64,000 nt of DNA, from NCBI GenBank assembly GCA_963702475.1, contig CAVPCT010000001.1, forward strand, positions 96,001 to 160,000. Reading direction: 5' to 3'. The translations under genes and the position numbers were made by a program. Of this stretch, positions 6,220-31,390 are shown one piece after another (positions within the stretch are counted from its first letter, which is position 1; every line of letters begins with the position of its first letter). Below the pieces are notes generated by a model. The model made no database searches and was not told the DNA's origin. It worked only from the letters and a program-made list of their open reading frames with translations. This DNA comes from an uncultured Thermoleophilia bacterium (GTDB lineage: Bacteria; Actinomycetota; Thermoleophilia; UBA2241).

Positions 6220-7425
6220 ATGGACGACGATGTCGAGCGGGAGGAGCCGCGGACGGCGGGAGACGCGGCGGCGACGTGTGACGAGGGGCGGCCGGAGCCG
6301 CAGGCTCCGCCGGCCGCCACGCCGCTCTCGACCGTCCTCGGCCAGTTCTCTCCCATCCAGCGGCTCCTCATCACCACCGCCGCCATCGCCGTCACCCTGC
6401 TCTTCATGCGCATCACGGCCGGCATCATCGTGCCGGTGTTGCTGGCGCTGGTCGTGACGATGGCGGTCTCACCGTTTCTGGATTGGCTGATGCGCCACCA
6501 CATCCCGCCCATCGTGGCGTGGCTCATCACCGTGGTCCTCACCACCGCCGCCGTGGTGTTCGTGTTCGTGCTGGGCGGCATAGGCATCGCCCGGCTGATC
6601 GGTGAGCTGAACGGCTACCTCACCGAGCTCACCGTCCAGCTGAGTGACGCGACGGGGTTCCTGGGCAACATCGGGATCCACCTGGAGGGCCTGTTCGAGC
6701 GTGACGGCCTGTTGCCGCCACATCGCATCATCTCGTTCAGCGTCCGGATCCTGCAGCTGCTGCAGAAGCTCTTCGGCGCGGTCAGCCTCACACTGCTCAT
6801 CGTCTTCTTCATGCTGGCTGAGTCCATCACGCTGCGGCTCAAGGTCCTGCGGACCCCCCCGCGCGTGAGCCCGCTCATCCAGCGTCTCGAACTGTTCACC
6901 CGTGACATGCGTGCCTTCGTCCAGGCAACGGCCATCATCGGCATCGTCAACGGCGTGGCCGTCGGCGTCTTCCTCTATCTGCTGGGCATCGAGCTCGCGC
7001 TCATGTGGGGCCTGTTCGCCTTCTTGATGACGTTCATCCCCACGCTGGGCTTCTTCCTCGCCGTGCTGCCCCCGTGCTTCTTCGCCCTGCTCGATCAGGG
7101 GTGGCGGACGGCGCTGCTCGTGTTCATCGGGTTCCTCGTCATCTGGGCCGTCACCGGTACTCTGCGCAGCGGGCGCTTCGTAGGCAGGCGCCTGAACCTC
7201 GCGCCGATCGTGATCCTGCTCTCCATCATCCTGTGGGGCTGGGTGCTGGGGATCATGGGCGGCCTGCTGGCGGTGCCCATGACGCTGCTCGTGCGGCGCG
7301 TGCTGCTCGAGGCCTACGACGAATCGCGCTGGATCACCGACCTGCTCGGGCGCCCCACCTGGACCCCCGCCGCGGACGAGGCGCAGCCGTCGGCGGGCGC
7401 CGGCGGGGACGAAGCCAAGGCCTGA
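6220..7425 (+). CDS. AI-2E family transporter
   Basis: Multiple TM helices, FIPTLG, LNLAP...WGWVLGIMGGLLAVP; TAGGGT 6 nt before the ATG suggests a leaderless mRNA. Confidence 0.85.
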   Translation: MDDDVEREEPRTAGDAAATCDEGRPEPQAPPAATPLSTVLGQFSPIQRLLITTAAIAVTLLFMRITAGIIVPVLLALVVTMAVSPFLDWLMRHHIPPIVAWLITVVLTTAAVVFVFVLGGIGIARLIGELNGYLTELTVQLSDATGFLGNIGIHLEGLFERDGLLPPHRIISFSVRILQLLQKLFGAVSLTLLIVFFMLAESITLRLKVLRTPPRVSPLIQRLELFTRDMRAFVQATAIIGIVNGVAVGVFLYLLGIELALMWGLFAFLMTFIPTLGFFLAVLPPCFFALLDQGWRTALLVFIGFLVIWAVTGTLRSGRFVGRRLNLAPIVILLSIILWGWVLGIMGGLLAVPMTLLVRRVLLEAYDESRWITDLLGRPTWTPAADEAQPSAGAGGDEAKA

Positions 7426-7507
7426 GCCCGCCCGCCGACCGGTGCGGCGCCGTCGTGCGACGGTGAGCGAGGCCGCCGGCGACGGCCGCGGGTCCGGCGT
7501 CCCCGGG

Positions 7508-22268: not shown

Positions 22269-22621
22269 GGTGTCCCTTCGACGGGGTTCCCCAGCGGGCA
22301 GCGGCTCGGCCTGTACCCGGCGGGCTGGCGCGACACGCGGGCGCGCCTCGCCCGTACGGCGTGACCGTCACACACAAGAAGGGGGACGAATCTGCGGGGG
22401 GAGGGACGCGCGGGGCGTCGCGATCTCTGAGATCCGTGGCCCAGTCAACCGTGTTCGCGTCCGCACTGCAACCCGGCTGGTGCGTACGGCTTCGGTCGAA
22501 CGGGCAGCCAGATGGGGATCGCCACAGTGGGAAGCGGCGCTCGACGGCGCCGAACGGGGACGCGCTCCTGGCCTGTAGACTTGACCTCAGCATCAGCCCC
22601 CCGACAGGAGAGGAGCCGACC

Positions 22622-23197
22622 ATGCCGAGCTTGAAGGGCAGCGAGACCGAGAAGAACCTGCTGAAGGCGTTCGCCGGCGAGAGCCAGGCGCGCAACCGGT
22701 ATACATTCTTCGCCAAGGCGGCCGTCAAGGAGGGGTACGAGCAGATCGGCGCCCTCTTCCTCGAGACGGCCGAGAACGAGGCCCAGCACGCCAAGGTGTT
22801 CTTCAAGCACCTCGAGGGCGGGCCGGTGGAGATCACCGCCACCTATCCGGCCGGGGTCATCGGGGCGACGACGGAGAACCTGGCGGCCGCGGCCGACGGG
22901 GAGAACGAGGAGTGGACGCAGCTGTACCCGGCGTTCGCCGACGTGGCCGAGGCCGAAGGCTTCACGGCCGTCGCGACCTCGTTCCGGCAGATCGCCAAGG
23001 TCGAGGCCAAGCACGAGCAGCGCTACCGCAAGCTGCTGGCCAACATCGAGCGCGGCCACGTGTTTGAGAAGGCCGACCCGGTCAGCTGGGTCTGCCGCAA
23101 GTGCGGTTACGTGCACCAGGGAACGAAGGCGCCCAAGGTGTGCCCCGCCTGCCAGCACCCGCAGGCCTACTTCGAGGTGTACGCCGAGAACTACTGA
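22622..23197 (+). CDS. rbr: Rubrerythrin
   Basis: [34 protein letters not shown]; rubredoxin domain CRKCG...CPACQHP; RBS AGGAG. Confidence 0.95.
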
Positions 23198-23680
23198 GCC
23201 GGCAACGGCACGCCCGTGTGCGGCGGGCCCGCCGGCGAAAGGGTTGACGCTGCAGGCGCCGAGAACCGTCGCCATGAGCACGAGCGCGCAGAGCGCCCCC
23301 AGCGCCGCGCTCCCGCGCGACCGGATCGGCGCCCTCCCTGCCGTTCCGCGTGTGACGTCCCTCCAGCCGCCCACGGCGCGCCTCCCCGACGGTCCCCGTG
23401 CCGCGTTACCTCGGGGTTCCCCGCGTGGCCCCCGCGGCACCGTTCGGGCGCCACGGCGGGACGGTGGAGGCGGCGGGGGGGTGGAAGCGGCGGTGGGACG
23501 GCAGGGCCTGACTCGGCCGTCGGCAGGACAACGTGAGTACGCATGCGTCGAGCGCGGCAGGCGGCGTGCCCATTGAACGAGGCGGCGAGCCCCCGGAGGT
23601 CCTGAGGGCTCGCCACGTTCCAGCCGAGCGGCTCGGTCGGCGCGCCGGCCGCCGGCCGGGCGGCGCGCCTCGGCGGTAGG

Positions 23681-24487
23681 CTACTCGAGCACCACGAGGG
23701 CGTCGGCCGTGAGCTCGTACTCCTCGTCCTCGTTGAGGTCGTGCACACGGATGCGCTCGAGCTCGCCCTCGCCCTTGAGCTCGAGCGGCTGCGCCTCCGT
23801 GAGCAGCTTCACGTCGGAGAGACGCAGGGCCGAGCGCACGGCGCTGCTCACGCTCGGCTCCTTGCCGGTGGTCATGAGCACCACGCGGCCGGTGTGGTCG
23901 GTGAGGTCGATGGCGACCTGCGCAGACGCGTCGCCGGTGTCCAGCACCACCACGCGTTGGCCGGCCAGCTCGGAGAGGTCGGCCAGCTTCGTGTACACGC
24001 CCTTGCCCTCGTAGTCGGCGAGATTGCTGATCTCGACCTCGACGACCGCGGCGGGCCTGGGGTGGCAGCTCTTCTCGACGGGCGTCGTGGTGGCGTCCTC
24101 GGGCTTGACGCCCTCGCGCCAGTTCTTGATGGCCTCGTGCAGGGCGTCGGCTGCCAGGTTGCTGCAGTGCATCTTGATGGGCGGCAGGCCGTCGAGCGCG
24201 TCGGCCACGTCGCCGCGCGACACCTTGAGCGCTTCGTCGAGCTTCATGCCCACCACGAGCTCGGTGACCATGCTCGAGGTCGCGACCGCAGACCCGCAGC
24301 CGAAGGTCTGGAACTTGATGTCCTCGATGCGGTCGTCGGGGGTGACCTTGATGTAGATGTCCATCATGTCGCCGCACACGGGGTTGCCGACGCGGCCGAC
24401 GGCGACGTTCTCGCCCTCCAGCGTGCCGACGTTGCGCGGGTTGCGGAAGTGCTCGAGTGTCTTCTCGCTGTACTGGGTCGATTTCAT
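23681..24487 (-). CDS. iscU: IscU/NifU-N Fe-S scaffold fused to a degenerate thioredoxin-reductase NADP(H)-binding-like domain
   Basis: YSEKTLEHFRNPRNVG, GNPVCGD, FGCGSA, KMHCSNLA; C-terminal ~120 aa YEGKGVY...AGQRVVVLDTGDASAQVAIDL...RVVL...ELTADALVV. Confidence 0.85.
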   Translation of the reverse strand: MKSTQYSEKTLEHFRNPRNVGTLEGENVAVGRVGNPVCGDMMDIYIKVTPDDRIEDIKFQTFGCGSAVATSSMVTELVVGMKLDEALKVSRGDVADALDGLPPIKMHCSNLAADALHEAIKNWREGVKPEDATTTPVEKSCHPRPAAVVEVEISNLADYEGKGVYTKLADLSELAGQRVVVLDTGDASAQVAIDLTDHTGRVVLMTTGKEPSVSSAVRSALRLSDVKLLTEAQPLELKGEGELERIRVHDLNEDEEYELTADALVVLE

Positions 24488-24527
24488 CAGTCGTGCCTCT
24501 CGCCGGATACGGTGGGGACGCCGCCGG

Positions 24528-25715
24528 TCACACCGGGGACGTCGTGTGGTACAGGGGGCTCAGGGCGCGCAGCCGCTGGATGACCGGCGGGAGCGCCTCC
24601 ATGATGCGCTCCACGTCCGCGTCGGTGCTGAAGCGCCCGAAGGTGAACTCCAGGGAGCCGTGCGCCTCCTCGTGCAGCAAGCCGCAGGAGATGAGGGTGT
24701 GCGACGGCTCCAGGGTCTTGGAGCTGCAGGCCGAGCCGGTCGCCGCCGCGACGCCGAGGTCGCGCAGCGACAGCACCATGGCCTCGCCCTCCACGCCCTC
24801 GAAGCGGAAGTGGGCGTTGTTGGGCAGGCGCCCGTCCGGCGGGTCGAGGGGGGCGCCGTTGAGGTGCGAGTCAGGTATCTCGGCGAGCACGCGCTGCACG
24901 AGGCGGTCGCGGATGGCGCGGATGCGCTCGACCTCGGCCGGCTGCTCCGCCGTCATGATGTCCGCGGCGGCGGCGAAGCCTGCGATGGACGCCAGGTCCT
25001 CAGTGCCCGAGCGCAGGCCGCGCTCCTGGCCTCCGCCGAGCAGCACGGGGGCGACTTGCACGCCCGAGCGCACGTACAGGGCGCCGACGCCGCGCGGGCC
25101 GTAGAGCTCGTTGGCCGACAGGCTCATCAAACTGACGGGCACGGCCCGCATGTCGATGGGCACGAGACCCTCCGCGGCGACCGCGTCGGTGTGCAGCGCC
25201 ACGCCGGTGCCGTCGAGCATCTCGGCGATCTCGCGGATGGGCTGCACGGTGCCGATCTCGTTGCTCGCCCAGCCGACGCTGACGAGGATGGTCTCGTCGG
25301 TGATGCGCGCGCGCAGCTTCTTGCACGACACGCGCCCGTACAGGTCGATGGGCGCGCGGGTGACCTTGAAGCCGCTCTTCTCGAGGTACTTGGCGATGTT
25401 CAGCACCGAGATGTGCTCGGCCTCGGTGATGATCACGTGATCGCCCTTGCGGCGGTTGCGCTGGGCGTAGCCGATCAGCGCGATGTTGGTCGCCTCCGTG
25501 GCCCCGGACGTGAAGACGATCTCGCGCGGCTCCGCGCCGAAGTACGCGGCGACGCGGCCGCGCGCGTCCTCCAGCGCGGACGTGGCCTCGTCGCCGACGG
25601 CGTGCAGCGAGGCGGCGTTGCCGAACGCCGAGCCGCCGAAGTACGGCAGCATGGCGTCCACGACGCGCGGGTCGACCGGACGCGACGACTGGTAGTCGGC
25701 GTACGCGACGTCCAT
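24528..25715 (-). CDS. iscS: IscS/NifS-like class V PLP-fold protein lacking the Schiff-base lysine
   Basis: FGNAASLH, FTSGATEA, EH, NEIGTVQP, GGGQERGLRSGT, GSACSS (Cys retained), but SANELYGP replaces SxHKxYGP; TGATG overlap with dsrE. Confidence 0.88.
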   Translation of the reverse strand: MDVAYADYQSSRPVDPRVVDAMLPYFGGSAFGNAASLHAVGDEATSALEDARGRVAAYFGAEPREIVFTSGATEATNIALIGYAQRNRRKGDHVIITEAEHISVLNIAKYLEKSGFKVTRAPIDLYGRVSCKKLRARITDETILVSVGWASNEIGTVQPIREIAEMLDGTGVALHTDAVAAEGLVPIDMRAVPVSLMSLSANELYGPRGVGALYVRSGVQVAPVLLGGGQERGLRSGTEDLASIAGFAAAADIMTAEQPAEVERIRAIRDRLVQRVLAEIPDSHLNGAPLDPPDGRLPNNAHFRFEGVEGEAMVLSLRDLGVAAATGSACSSKTLEPSHTLISCGLLHEEAHGSLEFTFGRFSTDADVERIMEALPPVIQRLRALSPLYHTTSPV

Positions 25716-26077
25716 CAGAAGTACATGGTCGCGCCGGCGTCGAGCACCAGGTCGTTGAGCGTTGCCGCTCCGACGATCTTGACGCCGTCGATGAGCTCGA
25801 CGGCCTCCCACCCGAGCATCTGCTTGGAGGCCTCGCACACGTAGATGGTGACGCCCATCTCGATGGTCTTCTGGAGCATCTCGGCGACGCTCGGGAAGCT
25901 GCCCAGCTGCATCTCCTCGGCGGCGCCCGGCTTGAGCACCGTGAGGCCCATCCCGAGGTAGTACACCGCGGCGTCCAGGCCCATGGCCCTGGCGCTCTGC
26001 GCGAGGACGAGCGGGGAGTACTGCCGTTCGGGGGCGTTGCTCGTCTGCACGTAGAGGATCATGTTCTCGTTCTTCAT
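25715..26077 (-). CDS. DsrE/DsrF family protein
   Basis: PL.LA..A.AMG...VYY.G.G...LK, GVTIYVCEAS (conserved Cys), GAATL; RBS AAGGGAG. Confidence 0.8.
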   Translation of the reverse strand: MKNENMILYVQTSNAPERQYSPLVLAQSARAMGLDAAVYYLGMGLTVLKPGAAEEMQLGSFPSVAEMLQKTIEMGVTIYVCEASKQMLGWEAVELIDGVKIVGAATLNDLVLDAGATMYF

Positions 26078-26098
26078 GGTCGGCTCCCTTTCACGTGG

Positions 26099-26338
26099 TC
26101 ACTTGAGTCTGCGGATGAGGATGCGGAGCTGATCGCCCTCGTGCTCGACGCCCACGACCTCGTGCCCGGCGCGTTTGGCGAACCGCGTGAGGTCCTCCTC
26201 GGCGGCGGGGTCGTCGGCGAACACCTCGAGGACCTCCCCGATCGCGACTGAGTCCACTGCCTCCCTCGTCTGGAACAGCGGCTCGGGGCAGTACAGCCCG
26301 AGGCAGTCGAGGGTCTGTACGGGCGTCTGATCGCTCAT
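26099..26338 (-). CDS. tusA: TusA/SirA family sulfur carrier protein
   Basis: LDCLGLYCPEP (CPxP), LEV.ADDPAA..DL..FA...GHE; RBS AAGGAG. Confidence 0.9.
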   Translation of the reverse strand: MSDQTPVQTLDCLGLYCPEPLFQTREAVDSVAIGEVLEVFADDPAAEEDLTRFAKRAGHEVVGVEHEGDQLRILIRRLK

Positions 26339-26630
26339 GCCGTGCTCCTTCGGGGATGTAGATACCCAACCACCGGAGTCGGTATTCCCACCGGACCCCC
26401 AGTCGATACCTGTGCCGGGGCGCGGTGCGCCGGCTGAGGGCGGCCGCCGCGCCGCGTGGGACGTCCGGACGGCTGAACCAGGAACCGGCGCGCCCCCCGC
26501 GGCGGGCCTGGCTCCGGCGCGGGCAGGGTTCGCGGGCCGCGGCGCGAAGCCGTAGCGGCCCGTCGTCGCGGCGGGTGCGCCGCCGCGGGCACGCTCAGGC
26601 ATCGCGGCGGCCCGTCGATACACTTCGGGG

Positions 26631-27692
26631 ATGGATGTGCGCGGACACAAGCTGCAGACCCTTACGACGTTCGTCGTGCTCGCTTGCCTGGCCGGGGGCG
26701 TGCTGGCCCTCGGGCGCGCCGCGCCGGCGGGGGCGGCCCTGCGGGCCGCCGGCTCCGGCGTCGGCGTCCGCGTGGACGCCGTCCCGTCGCTGCAGAAGCT
26801 GCAGAACGAGGCCAAGGCCACGCGCGCCCAGATGCAGCGGCTGGGCGCCGAGCAGGAGGCCATCATCCAGAGGTGCAACGAGGCGCAGCAGCGTCTCGAC
26901 GAGGTGAGCGCCGAGCTCGTGACGGCGCGCCGCGACCTGGCGCGCAAGCGCAAGGAGCTGGACGAGCAGCGCACGTTGGTGGCCGGCCGCATGAAGACGA
27001 TGTACAAGGCCGGCCAGTACACCTGGCTGGACATCGCGACCTCGGCGTCCAGCCTCGCCGAGGCCGAGACGGTGATGGACTTCCTGCGCAGGATCTCCCT
27101 CCTGGACAGGCACGAGGAGACCGAGCTGCAGAGGCTCACCGGCCAGGCGCGCAAGCTCGAGCACGACGTGGAGGCCGACCGCAAGAAGGCGGTCACGGCC
27201 CAGGTGGACCTCGACGACCAGCGCGCCCAGCTGGAGGCCAAGATCGCCCAGCGCGCCACCGTCCTCAAGGACCTGGTGACGCGCATCAAGAAGATCCTGT
27301 CCGCGCCGCTGCTTCTCATGAAGGCCGGCGGCAAGGTGACCCAGGTCACCTGGGCCCAGGCCGTGCTCAAGAGCCTGGGCATGCCCATCACGGCCGACAA
27401 CGTGGCCGCCGTGGTGGCCTGGGAGATGGCCGAGGGCGGGCACTGGTACAACACCGCGTACTACAACCCGCTGAACACCACCCAGTCCATGCCGGGGGCG
27501 ACCATCTTCAACTCGGTCGGCGTCAAGGCGTACACCAGCTGGGAGCAGGGCCTCAAGGCCACCGTGATCACGCTGCACAACGGCTACTACGGCGGCATCC
27601 TCGAGGCGCTCAGCCGTGGCAACGACGCCCAGGCAGTGGCCGATGCGGTGGCGGCCTCGCCCTGGGGCACCGGCTCGTTCGACCCACGGTGA
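26631..27692 (+). CDS. Secreted PcsB/CwlO-type coiled-coil protein with C-terminal lysozyme-like (putative peptidoglycan-lytic) domain
   Basis: Signal peptide; long coiled coil with MYKAG motif; AWEMAEGG...YNPLNTTQ...GVKAY.SW..G; TACACT-N6-ATG leaderless start. Confidence 0.7.
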   Translation: MDVRGHKLQTLTTFVVLACLAGGVLALGRAAPAGAALRAAGSGVGVRVDAVPSLQKLQNEAKATRAQMQRLGAEQEAIIQRCNEAQQRLDEVSAELVTARRDLARKRKELDEQRTLVAGRMKTMYKAGQYTWLDIATSASSLAEAETVMDFLRRISLLDRHEETELQRLTGQARKLEHDVEADRKKAVTAQVDLDDQRAQLEAKIAQRATVLKDLVTRIKKILSAPLLLMKAGGKVTQVTWAQAVLKSLGMPITADNVAAVVAWEMAEGGHWYNTAYYNPLNTTQSMPGATIFNSVGVKAYTSWEQGLKATVITLHNGYYGGILEALSRGNDAQAVADAVAASPWGTGSFDPR

Positions 27693-30366: not shown

Positions 30367-30559
30367 GGTCTGACGTCCGGGAGCAGGTCGTGGACGCGGA
30401 GCTCGCGCGGCCGCCGGGGAAATCTGCCTGATGCCATGGGCGGATCGTCCCGGGGCAACGGCGGCCGGCGGCGGTCCTGCTGGGAATAACCCGGGTGTGG
30501 ACGAGGCTGCGCGGAGGTCGGACGTTCGCCGGGCCGCGCGGCGCAGGGGGGGGCGGGTC

Positions 30560-31390
30560 ATGTACACGATCGCCGACCGGCAGCAGCTCACCAAGCGCGA
30601 CACCGTGAGCCTCACCATCGAGGCCCCCCAGATCGCACGCAGGATCCGGCCCGGGCAGTTCGTGGTCGTCCGGGTGAACGAGACCGGCGAGCGCGTGCCC
30701 CTCACGGTGGCGCAGAAGGACCCGGCCGCCGGCACCATCACGCTCATCATCCAGGTCGTCGGCAAGAGCACCGCGCTGCTCGCTTCGCTGCGCGCCGGCG
30801 ACGCCGTCAAGGACCTGTGCGGGCCTCTGGGGAAGCCGGCGCCCATCGAGAAGGTCGGCACGGTGGTCGGCATCGGCGGCGGGTCGGGCATCGCCGTGCT
30901 GCACCACCTGCTCGGGGGGCACCGCGAGGCCGGCAACCGCATCGTCGGCGTCATCGGGGCGCGTGACAAGGACCTCCTGATCATGGAGGAGGACATGCGC
31001 TCCCTGTGCGACGAGATGCTCGTGACCACCGACGACGGCAGCTACGGCATGCACGGCAAGGTGACCGAGGCGCTGAAGGCGCTCGTGGAGCGGCAGCAGC
31101 GCATCGATCGGGTGATCGCCATCGGGCCGCTCGTCATGATGCGCGCGGTCGCCGAGATGACGCGCGTGTACGGGTTGCCGACCGAGGTGAGCCTCAACCC
31201 GATCATGGTGGACGGCAGCGGCATGTGCGGGGGCTGCCGCTGCACGGTGGACGGCAAGACGCGCTTCGCCTGCGTGGACGGCCCGCACTTCGACGCCTTC
31301 GGGGTGGACTTCGACGAGCTGATCCAGCGAGGTCGGATGTACGAGCGCGACGAGCGCACCGCCTTGCTGACCTCGGTGCGGGCGGCGTAG
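30560..31390 (+). CDS. nfnA: NfnA/SudB small subunit (sulfide/dihydroorotate dehydrogenase-like FAD/NAD-binding, 2Fe-2S)
   Basis: PGQFV.VR...[33 protein letters not shown]...CVDGP. Confidence 0.88.

Follow-up and report, generated by a model that had tools for sequence, protein, structure and literature searches.

The 64,000-nucleotide window analysed here (positions 96,001 to 160,000 of the forward strand of contig CAVPCT010000001.1, assembly GCA_963702475.1) derives from an uncultured Thermoleophilia bacterium (Actinomycetota, UBA2241) and carries on its minus strand a cassette with the gene order tusA-dsrE-iscS*-iscU. The third of these four genes, iscS*, encodes an IscS/NifS-like protein in which the lysine that forms the Schiff base with pyridoxal 5'-phosphate (PLP) in canonical cysteine desulfurases is replaced by glutamate (Table 1). 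The genes are closely spaced, with 21 nucleotides (nt) between tusA and dsrE, an overlap of the dsrE stop and iscS* start codons (TGATG), and 40 nt between iscS* and iscU, and a ribosome-binding site (gaaggag) stands ahead of the ATG of tusA. A scan of 23100–26700 for consensus promoters and terminators found nothing, as expected for a high-GC actinobacterium. The nearest solved chain to the DsrE-like protein is 3mc3 (DsrE/DsrF-like, 7e-11), with Cys81 aligned to its cysteine; the score against the NCBIfam DsrE2 model falls far under the cut-off, and the subfamilies DsrE2 and DsrE3 are not separated by this assignment.

Table 1. Genes, domains and sites of the cassette, in window coordinates (aa, amino acids)
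Feature	Position	Strand	Support or remark
Operator-like palindrome ATACCGAC-N7-GTTGGGTAT	26362..26385	minus	24 nt upstream of tusA start
tusA, 79-aa sulfur carrier with C17-P-x-P motif	26099..26338	minus	Pfam TusA PF01206, 1.9e-24, 85.7 bits
dsrE-like gene, 120 aa, single Cys81 in IYVCEAS	25715..26077	minus	Pfam DsrE PF02635, 2.3e-15, 57.2 bits
iscS*, 395-aa Lys-less IscS/NifS-like protein	24528..25715	minus	Pfam Aminotran_5 PF00266, 1.2e-63, entire length
Ala180 codon, last residue of HTDAVA, at the canonical Gln (PLP O3' contact) position	25176..25178	minus	
Asn202 and Glu203 codons, at the canonical His-Lys (PLP Schiff base) position	25107..25112	minus	Asn202 at 25110-25112; Glu203, GAG, at 25107-25109
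Cys330-Lys333 of GSACSSK loop	24717..24728	minus	Cys330 aligned with A. fulgidus cysteine of same loop
iscU, 268 aa, scaffold ligands C38, D40, C64, H107, C108	23681..24487	minus	Pfam NifU_N, 3.6e-46
IscU acidic C-terminal domain, ~140 aa	23681-24097	minus	Like the NAD(P)H domain of thioredoxin reductase (TrxR)-like ferredoxin-NADP reductases

A lysine-less relative of the Archaeoglobus fulgidus IscS

The iscS* reading frame is intact from its ATG at 25715 to the stop at 24528 and matches its nearest homologues in length. Within 25000–25300 the minus strand encodes L-S-A-N-E-L-Y-G-P (ctg tcg gcc aac gag ctc tac ggc ccg), and a single alignment of seven sites reads H-D-A-S-N-E-C in IscS* against H-D-Q-S-H-K-C in the canonical paralogue of the same genome. 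Both the lysine of the S-x-H-K motif and the equivalent of Gln183 of canonical IscS/NifS are thus missing, the corresponding segments being S-A-N-E and HTDAVA. The substituted positions correspond to PLP contacts of E. coli IscS. The first-pass annotation of this DNA had read S-A-N-E-L-Y-G-P with a GAG codon at 25107–25109 and three changes (H>N, K>E and Q>A) at PLP-site positions of an otherwise intact full-length frame, and minus-strand reading, codon mapping and alignment with the canonical paralogue bear it out on each of these points. The roles of His104, Asp180, Gln183, Lys206, Cys328 and Arg354 in the PLP site of E. coli IscS are backed by PMC9978102.

Profile and structure comparisons place the protein apart from the canonical enzymes. 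In the test against NCBIfam models TIGR03402/TIGR02006 it scores 433 bits with the NifS model, below the equivalog cut-off of 530.75, and it reaches 352.6 bits with the IscS equivalog model, for which the cut-off is 643.2. Its top matches in the PDB are the structures of A. fulgidus IscS, 4eb5, 4eb7 and 4hvk (E 6.5e-129; residues 4–390 for 4eb5_A), with the D199K variant 4r5f also among them; the best canonical chain follows at 6e-92, others being weaker. Identity to A. fulgidus IscS is ~57% by a hand count of the alignment, in which SANELYGP lies opposite SSNDIYGP, Glu203 aligns with Asp199, and the GSACSSKTLEPSH cysteine loop is identical. The parallel to A. fulgidus-type IscS drawn in the first-pass annotation is thereby upheld, since this protein is the best solved relative, and IscS* is, as far as its sequence can place it, a bacterial, Glu-bearing member of the known inactive IscS of A. 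fulgidus type. Canonical IscS/NifS proteins (E. coli IscS, human NFS1 and the genome's own IscS on contig 5) share with it the fold, the length, 43–46% identity, the loop cysteine and the pairing with IscU; IscS* differs from them in lacking the equivalents of Lys206, His205 and Gln183 and in being flanked by TusA and DsrE instead.

The adjoining IscU retains a complete set of cluster ligands and carries in addition an unusual acidic tail (27 Asp/Glu versus 13 Lys/Arg). The tail matches residues 128–244 of PDB 3lzw (E 3.1e-8) and the stretch 151–265 of an NCBIfam TrxR model; in it the nucleotide motif GGGDSA reads DTGDAS, and the CxxC motif is absent. A TrxR-like tail is found on IscU in Asgard cassettes as well, in contrast to the IscU of A. 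fulgidus, a 153-residue chain devoid of the tail, where the present protein has 268 residues and a degenerate TrxR-like domain.

Conservation, kinship and distribution

Among the 120 nearest database homologues (80–100% identity, 376–426 residues) the His-Lys position reads Asn-Asp in 94 and Asn-Glu in 26, so that the HK pair is replaced by N-[DE] in every one of them. H[TS]DAVA is found in 118 of these proteins, and GSACSSKT is kept in all 120, making Lys333 invariant across the clade. Since only 26 database proteins, those nearest to the window (P0001–P0025 and P0085), have Glu and the others have Asp, an old K>D change followed by a recent and conservative D>E change is indicated, with Asp, as in Asp199 of A. 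fulgidus, as the ancestral state of the clade. Such lasting retention of an acidic side chain suggests that it has some role, possibly in pairing with the amine of pyridoxamine 5'-phosphate (PMP). In the IscS* proteins of 14 cassettes T73, H101, D177, S200, C330 and K333 are invariant, as are C17, P18 and P20 in the 14 accompanying TusA proteins. Pairwise ratios of nonsynonymous to synonymous substitution rates (dN/dS) are 0.20–0.33 against four orthologues from the same genus and 0.32–0.51 against three more distant actinobacterial ones.

These data bear on whether the altered site might be a sequencing error, or iscS* a pseudogene in decay that the genome's canonical IscS has rendered redundant. 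The genome does hold a canonical paralogue, and one genome of the genus (G015) has a frame-shifted second copy, but the intact reading frame, the like state of 120 of 120 homologues, the dN/dS of 0.2–0.33 within the genus, and the conservation of the operon in two domains of life make this explanation highly improbable. The codon itself recurs in an independent assembly: a contig from a different public run (X2, record 19, covering 25078–25232) differs from the window at two positions only, 25130 and 25131, and its GAG codon is hence identical. The view of the first-pass annotation that the protein is a conserved pseudo-enzyme, the product of neither error nor decay, is supported by the homologues, the dN/dS values and this contig alike.

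The second cassette copy of G015 (L105, G015:C4:38500-43500) has its iscS* out of frame over approximately residues 70–145, with flanking TusA, DsrE and IscU intact and an intact iscS* copy elsewhere in that genome. A TGA within the match in genome G021, considered as selenocysteine or as a break, was rejected as merely a stop codon read through. Sediment and wastewater metagenomes yield near-identical contigs, and no public run holding at least half of the sampled window words was found. A wetland metatranscriptome (X16) contains contigs ~97–98% identical to 24526–24767 and 25216–25366; they belong to a relative and may reflect DNA carry-over, so they are not evidence of transcription.

Gene neighbourhood was compared using the window proteins as tblastn queries, by which short divergent TusA genes may escape a single query. 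Twenty-five Lys-less loci were available (the window's own, 11 from the genus, the broken G015 second copy, those of G374, G021 and G057, and nine named loci from a genome_contigs set whose 80 loci are the best 80 of 593 and not a random sample). TusA adjoins 24 of the 25, the sole miss lying at a contig end; DsrE adjoins 22 and IscU 23, and 19 have the TrxR-like tail on IscU. No TusA or DsrE match was found within the flanks of any of 71 Lys-containing loci from the same scan. The tusA-dsrE-iscS*-iscU cassette recurs in Actinobacteria, Asgard archaea, Bathyarchaeia and others. Beside iscS* there is no IscR gene, and the neighbouring open reading frames (ORFs) that were scanned revealed no HscBA, Fdx or iscA. 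The minimal iron–sulfur (Fe-S) system MIS (MisS-MisU) of Garcia et al. is said to consist of an IscS-like and IscU-like pair without ISC chaperones or carriers. An IscS-like and IscU-like pair is present at this locus, but membership of MIS is defined phylogenetically. Elsewhere in the genome are a canonical Rrf2(IscR-like)-IscS(HK)-IscU operon on contig 5 and a second Lys-containing class-V enzyme on contig 6, with one weak SufBD match, three TusA genes and two IscU genes in all.

A tree of 67 rows, hand-picked to span phyla (36 rows from a set of 92 fetched loci, 30 from 150 cluster representatives, and the genome's own canonical protein), gathers 21 rows, all without Lys, into one clade (SH-aLRT, an approximate likelihood-ratio support, 98) inside which IscS* branches, and a more careful tree agrees. 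In the latter, eight actinobacterial rows form a group (100/100) whose sister is a single Thorarchaeote (99/95), with two Promethearchaeota next (100/100), and in both trees the Actinobacteria are nested inside the Asgard sequences. The genome's canonical IscS clusters instead with Rubrobacteraceae. Monophyly of the Asgard sequences is not rejected by the approximately unbiased (AU) test (p 0.94 for the quick tree, where the constrained tree is the better one, and p 0.40 for the careful tree), and thus the trees do not settle the donor of a transfer, although the close actinobacterial–Asgard kinship of Lys-less IscS appears solid on the aligned sequences. An archaeal or deep-anaerobe origin, as raised in the first-pass annotation, would apply to the gene cassette, whose Lys-less IscS groups with Asgard archaeal sequences, and not to the organism, an actinobacterium.

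Distribution is patchy. In an even draw of the phylum, four of 401 genomes (from three families, its own included) encode an A. fulgidus-type protein at E <= 1e-120, and within the genus 15 of 18 genomes have a full-length iscS* and one a fragment. Such a spread fits horizontal acquisition combined with dispensability.

The library of 150 cluster representatives consists mostly of canonical enzymes, because relatives of A. fulgidus type share the 50% cluster of the query itself. The library nonetheless includes at least ten further Lys-less IscS-like proteins (P0126, P0127, P0137, P0141, P0166, P0186, P0192, P0195, P0225 and P0235), with the pairs SA, NS, GP, HM, QG, HT, QQ and GR in place of HK. 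Those placed in the tree (HT, QG, QQ, GR and HM) are scattered among Lys-containing rows, which points to repeated loss of the lysine in the family.

A palindrome shared with the housekeeping isc operon

The palindrome ahead of tusA is conserved there as ATACC[AG]AC-N7-GT[CT]GGGTAT in an alignment of upstream regions. In relaxed form (ATNCCRAC-N7-GTYGGGWWT) it matches four sites in the 4.3-Mb genome, where a rough composition estimate predicts ~0.01 and a reversed-pattern control gives none. One site belongs to the cassette; the others lie in the Rrf2-IscS-IscU promoter (G000 C5:130180-130203), at the start of a DUF1858-DUF438-hemerythrin gene (C5:585443-585466), and in the intergenic region between a multicopper-oxidase-like gene and holA (C2:176889-176912). 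All 14 genus genomes compared have a palindrome behind a CATAAT box in the region upstream of the Rrf2 gene; in 12 of them it is close to ATGCC[GA]AC-N7-GTTGGGAT, and in two it has diverged. A stricter pattern yields 61 matches in 26 genus genomes versus three for the control, and of 30 fetched sites 21 are located 24–80 nt upstream of tusA, eight at the hemerythrin gene, and one at neither.

The type-1 operator of the Rrf2 protein IscR is described as a 25-bp palindrome, ATASYYGACTRWWWYAGTCRRSTAT, overlapping the promoter (PMC3899308). Agreement with this E. coli consensus amounts to 16/25 for the cassette, 18/25 for the Rrf2 promoter and 16/25 for the fourth site, and random window 36-mers reach 16/25 in 0.7% of trials. 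From its position and similarity, the palindrome would place the cassette in an IscR-type regulon together with the housekeeping isc operon, and the four sites look like a small IscR-like regulon kept across the genus.

At the third site the palindrome covers the annotated start codon of the DUF1858-DUF438-hemerythrin ORF (L158 5954-7210), which overlaps a PAS_10 ORF (6982-7458) in another frame; the region (L158:5954-7458, equal to G000 C5:585453-586957) may hold a frameshift, a misassembly or a pair of overlapping genes. A recurrent word, ATGCCGACCATSGGCGTCGGGTAG, was considered as a mark of Rrf2 promoters and rejected, as it did not lie beside Rrf2/IscS in the six loci checked; it is nearly unchanged in several genus genomes (L134, L159-L163) and occurs twice within 2.8 kb in G003.

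Possible roles of the cassette

Knowledge of Lys-less IscS in A. fulgidus goes back to 2012–2015. In that protein (AfIscS) Asp199 replaces the lysine, PMP is held, desulfurase activity is nil, and a cysteine ligand is thought to be donated to the [2Fe-2S] cluster on IscU (PMC8918507; PMC7585200); the sulfur source of the AfIscS-IscU pair is described as an open question, with sulfide proposed (PMC8918507). The A. fulgidus IscS2-IscU system (4EB5, 4EB7, 4HVK; D199K variant 4R5F) resembles the present one in having Asn and an acidic residue for His-Lys, the same cysteine loop and an IscU partner, and differs in its Asp, here Glu, and in its host, here bacterial. Methanosarcina acetivorans offers a further likeness in IscS1 (MA0808), a protein without the catalytic lysine whose partner, IscU1 (MA0807, 24.2 kDa), is long; IscS1 formed inclusion bodies and is uncharacterised, and the authors suggest that it may work as AfIscS does (PMC7585200). 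Regarding the carriers, TusA is a direct partner of IscS in E. coli (PDB 3LVJ; PMC11302665), and DsrE-TusA cascades are known (PMC11094781). The E. coli IscS-TusA and sulfur-oxidiser DsrE/TusA relays employ the same carrier families and active cysteines, but there an active desulfurase passes sulfur to TusA, or the sulfur is directed to oxidation, whereas here it would have to flow towards IscS*/IscU, the IscS* partner being presumably inactive.

Taken together, homology and synteny favour, with a probability of roughly 60%, a role for IscS* as a non-catalytic partner of IscU that is fed by a TusA/DsrE sulfur relay. IscS* keeps its fold and the greater part of the vitamin-B6 pocket, along with Cys330 on the mobile loop, but by homology to AfIscS it could form no lysine–PLP aldimine and hence would not desulfurate cysteine. 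It would act as a structural partner of the adjoining IscU, with Cys330 serving as cluster or persulfide ligand in the way seen in the solved A. fulgidus (IscS-IscU)2 complex, and the acidic residue, Asp in the clade and Glu here, would probably pair with the PMP amine, the cofactor being bound non-covalently. A persulfide might then pass from Cys81 of the DsrE-like protein to Cys17 of TusA, and on to Cys330 of IscS* and IscU. The relayed sulfur may come ultimately from the genome's canonical IscS, an ordinary desulfurase, or from environmental sulfane sulfur or sulfide. Through an Rrf2/IscR-type operator, the cassette would be tied to the control of Fe-S homeostasis in its host.

Several findings weigh against this account. 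The 25 Lys-less loci are related to one another, 14 of them coming from one genus; the genome_contigs loci are the best 80 of 593, and DsrE is missing from three of the 25. Loss of activity is argued by analogy with one archaeal homologue. The genome retains a canonical IscS (HK), and five of five checked archaeal cassette genomes likewise encode a Lys-containing class-V enzyme, so that a cysteine-independent route is not required; the cassette is moreover dispensable, since a genus member whose genome is 100% complete does without it. TusA competes with IscU for IscS in E. coli (PMC11302665), which would complicate a hand-over from TusA to an IscS*-IscU complex. As for regulation, the cassette palindrome agrees with the E. 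coli IscR type-1 consensus at just 16 of 25 positions, and the genome encodes six Rrf2 paralogues as candidate regulators. A more far-reaching version, in which the cassette forms a self-contained Fe-S line using carrier persulfide rather than cysteine, has moved between Asgard archaea and Actinobacteria, is under the IscR-type control of the housekeeping isc operon in the genus, and holds PMP through Asp/Glu as a purely structural cofactor, is tentative and rather doubtful.

Among the alternatives, the one deserving most attention, though still unlikely, limits IscS* to the part of a scaffold partner, free sulfide supplying the sulfur, and attributes TusA and DsrE to persulfide buffering or detoxification, or to thiolation, linked to the pair by co-regulation. 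Sulfide has been put forward in print for AfIscS-IscU (PMC8918507), the neighbours are of anaerobe type (rubrerythrin), the sediment and wastewater provenance of near-identical contigs is in keeping with it, and so is the lack of DsrE in three cassettes. Yet the occurrence of TusA at 24 of 25 Lys-less loci against none of the 71 Lys-containing ones, taken with the translational coupling of dsrE and iscS*, is hard to explain without a shared function. Conversely, IscS* might still be an enzyme, holding PLP or PMP non-covalently or through another lysine (e.g., Lys333) and performing a slow or different reaction, whether desulfuration, a transamination-type half reaction, or selenocysteine or persulfide chemistry. 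Of eight PLP contacts, five are kept (T73, H101, D177, S200 and T238), and the clade shows no variation at Lys333; binding of PMP or PLP persists in AfIscS (PMC8918507), and E. coli IscS K206A retains some cofactor (PMC9978102). This possibility is nevertheless improbable, as AfIscS is reported to lack desulfurase activity and its D199K variant to hold PMP and not PLP (PMC8918507), the E. coli variants K206A, Q183E and H104Q are inactive (PMC9978102), and three catalytic-site residues have been altered together in the whole clade.

Slightly less credible still is a cassette unrelated to Fe-S assembly, serving as a sulfur-trafficking or sensing module (e.g., for thiolated cofactors or tRNA) with IscU- and IscS-like carriers. 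The TusA and DsrE families act in tRNA thiolation, molybdenum cofactor synthesis and dissimilatory sulfur oxidation, and the extra domain on IscU is unusual; against such a module stand the fully intact cluster ligands of IscU, the [2Fe-2S] cluster held by the homologous A. fulgidus pair, and an operator-like palindrome shared with the housekeeping isc operon. The structural-partner reading with a carrier relay is the one retained here.

This bacterial member shows that A. fulgidus-type IscS is not confined to archaea, and an active paralogue, two carriers in the same operon and a recognisable putative operator make it a tractable setting in which to ask if TusA/DsrE feed such complexes. A full-text search, from whose coverage most subscription journals are absent, found no literature linking these carriers to Lys-less IscS, and the figures and supplement of PMC7585200 may bear on prior publication of the cassette.

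Two genes on the plus strand complete the picture of the surroundings. The rubrerythrin gene lies convergent to the cassette at 22619–23197, and an ORF at 30431–31390 resembles, by eye, the small subunit of an oxidoreductase of NfnAB/sulfide-dehydrogenase type; both would fit an oxygen-sensitive lifestyle.

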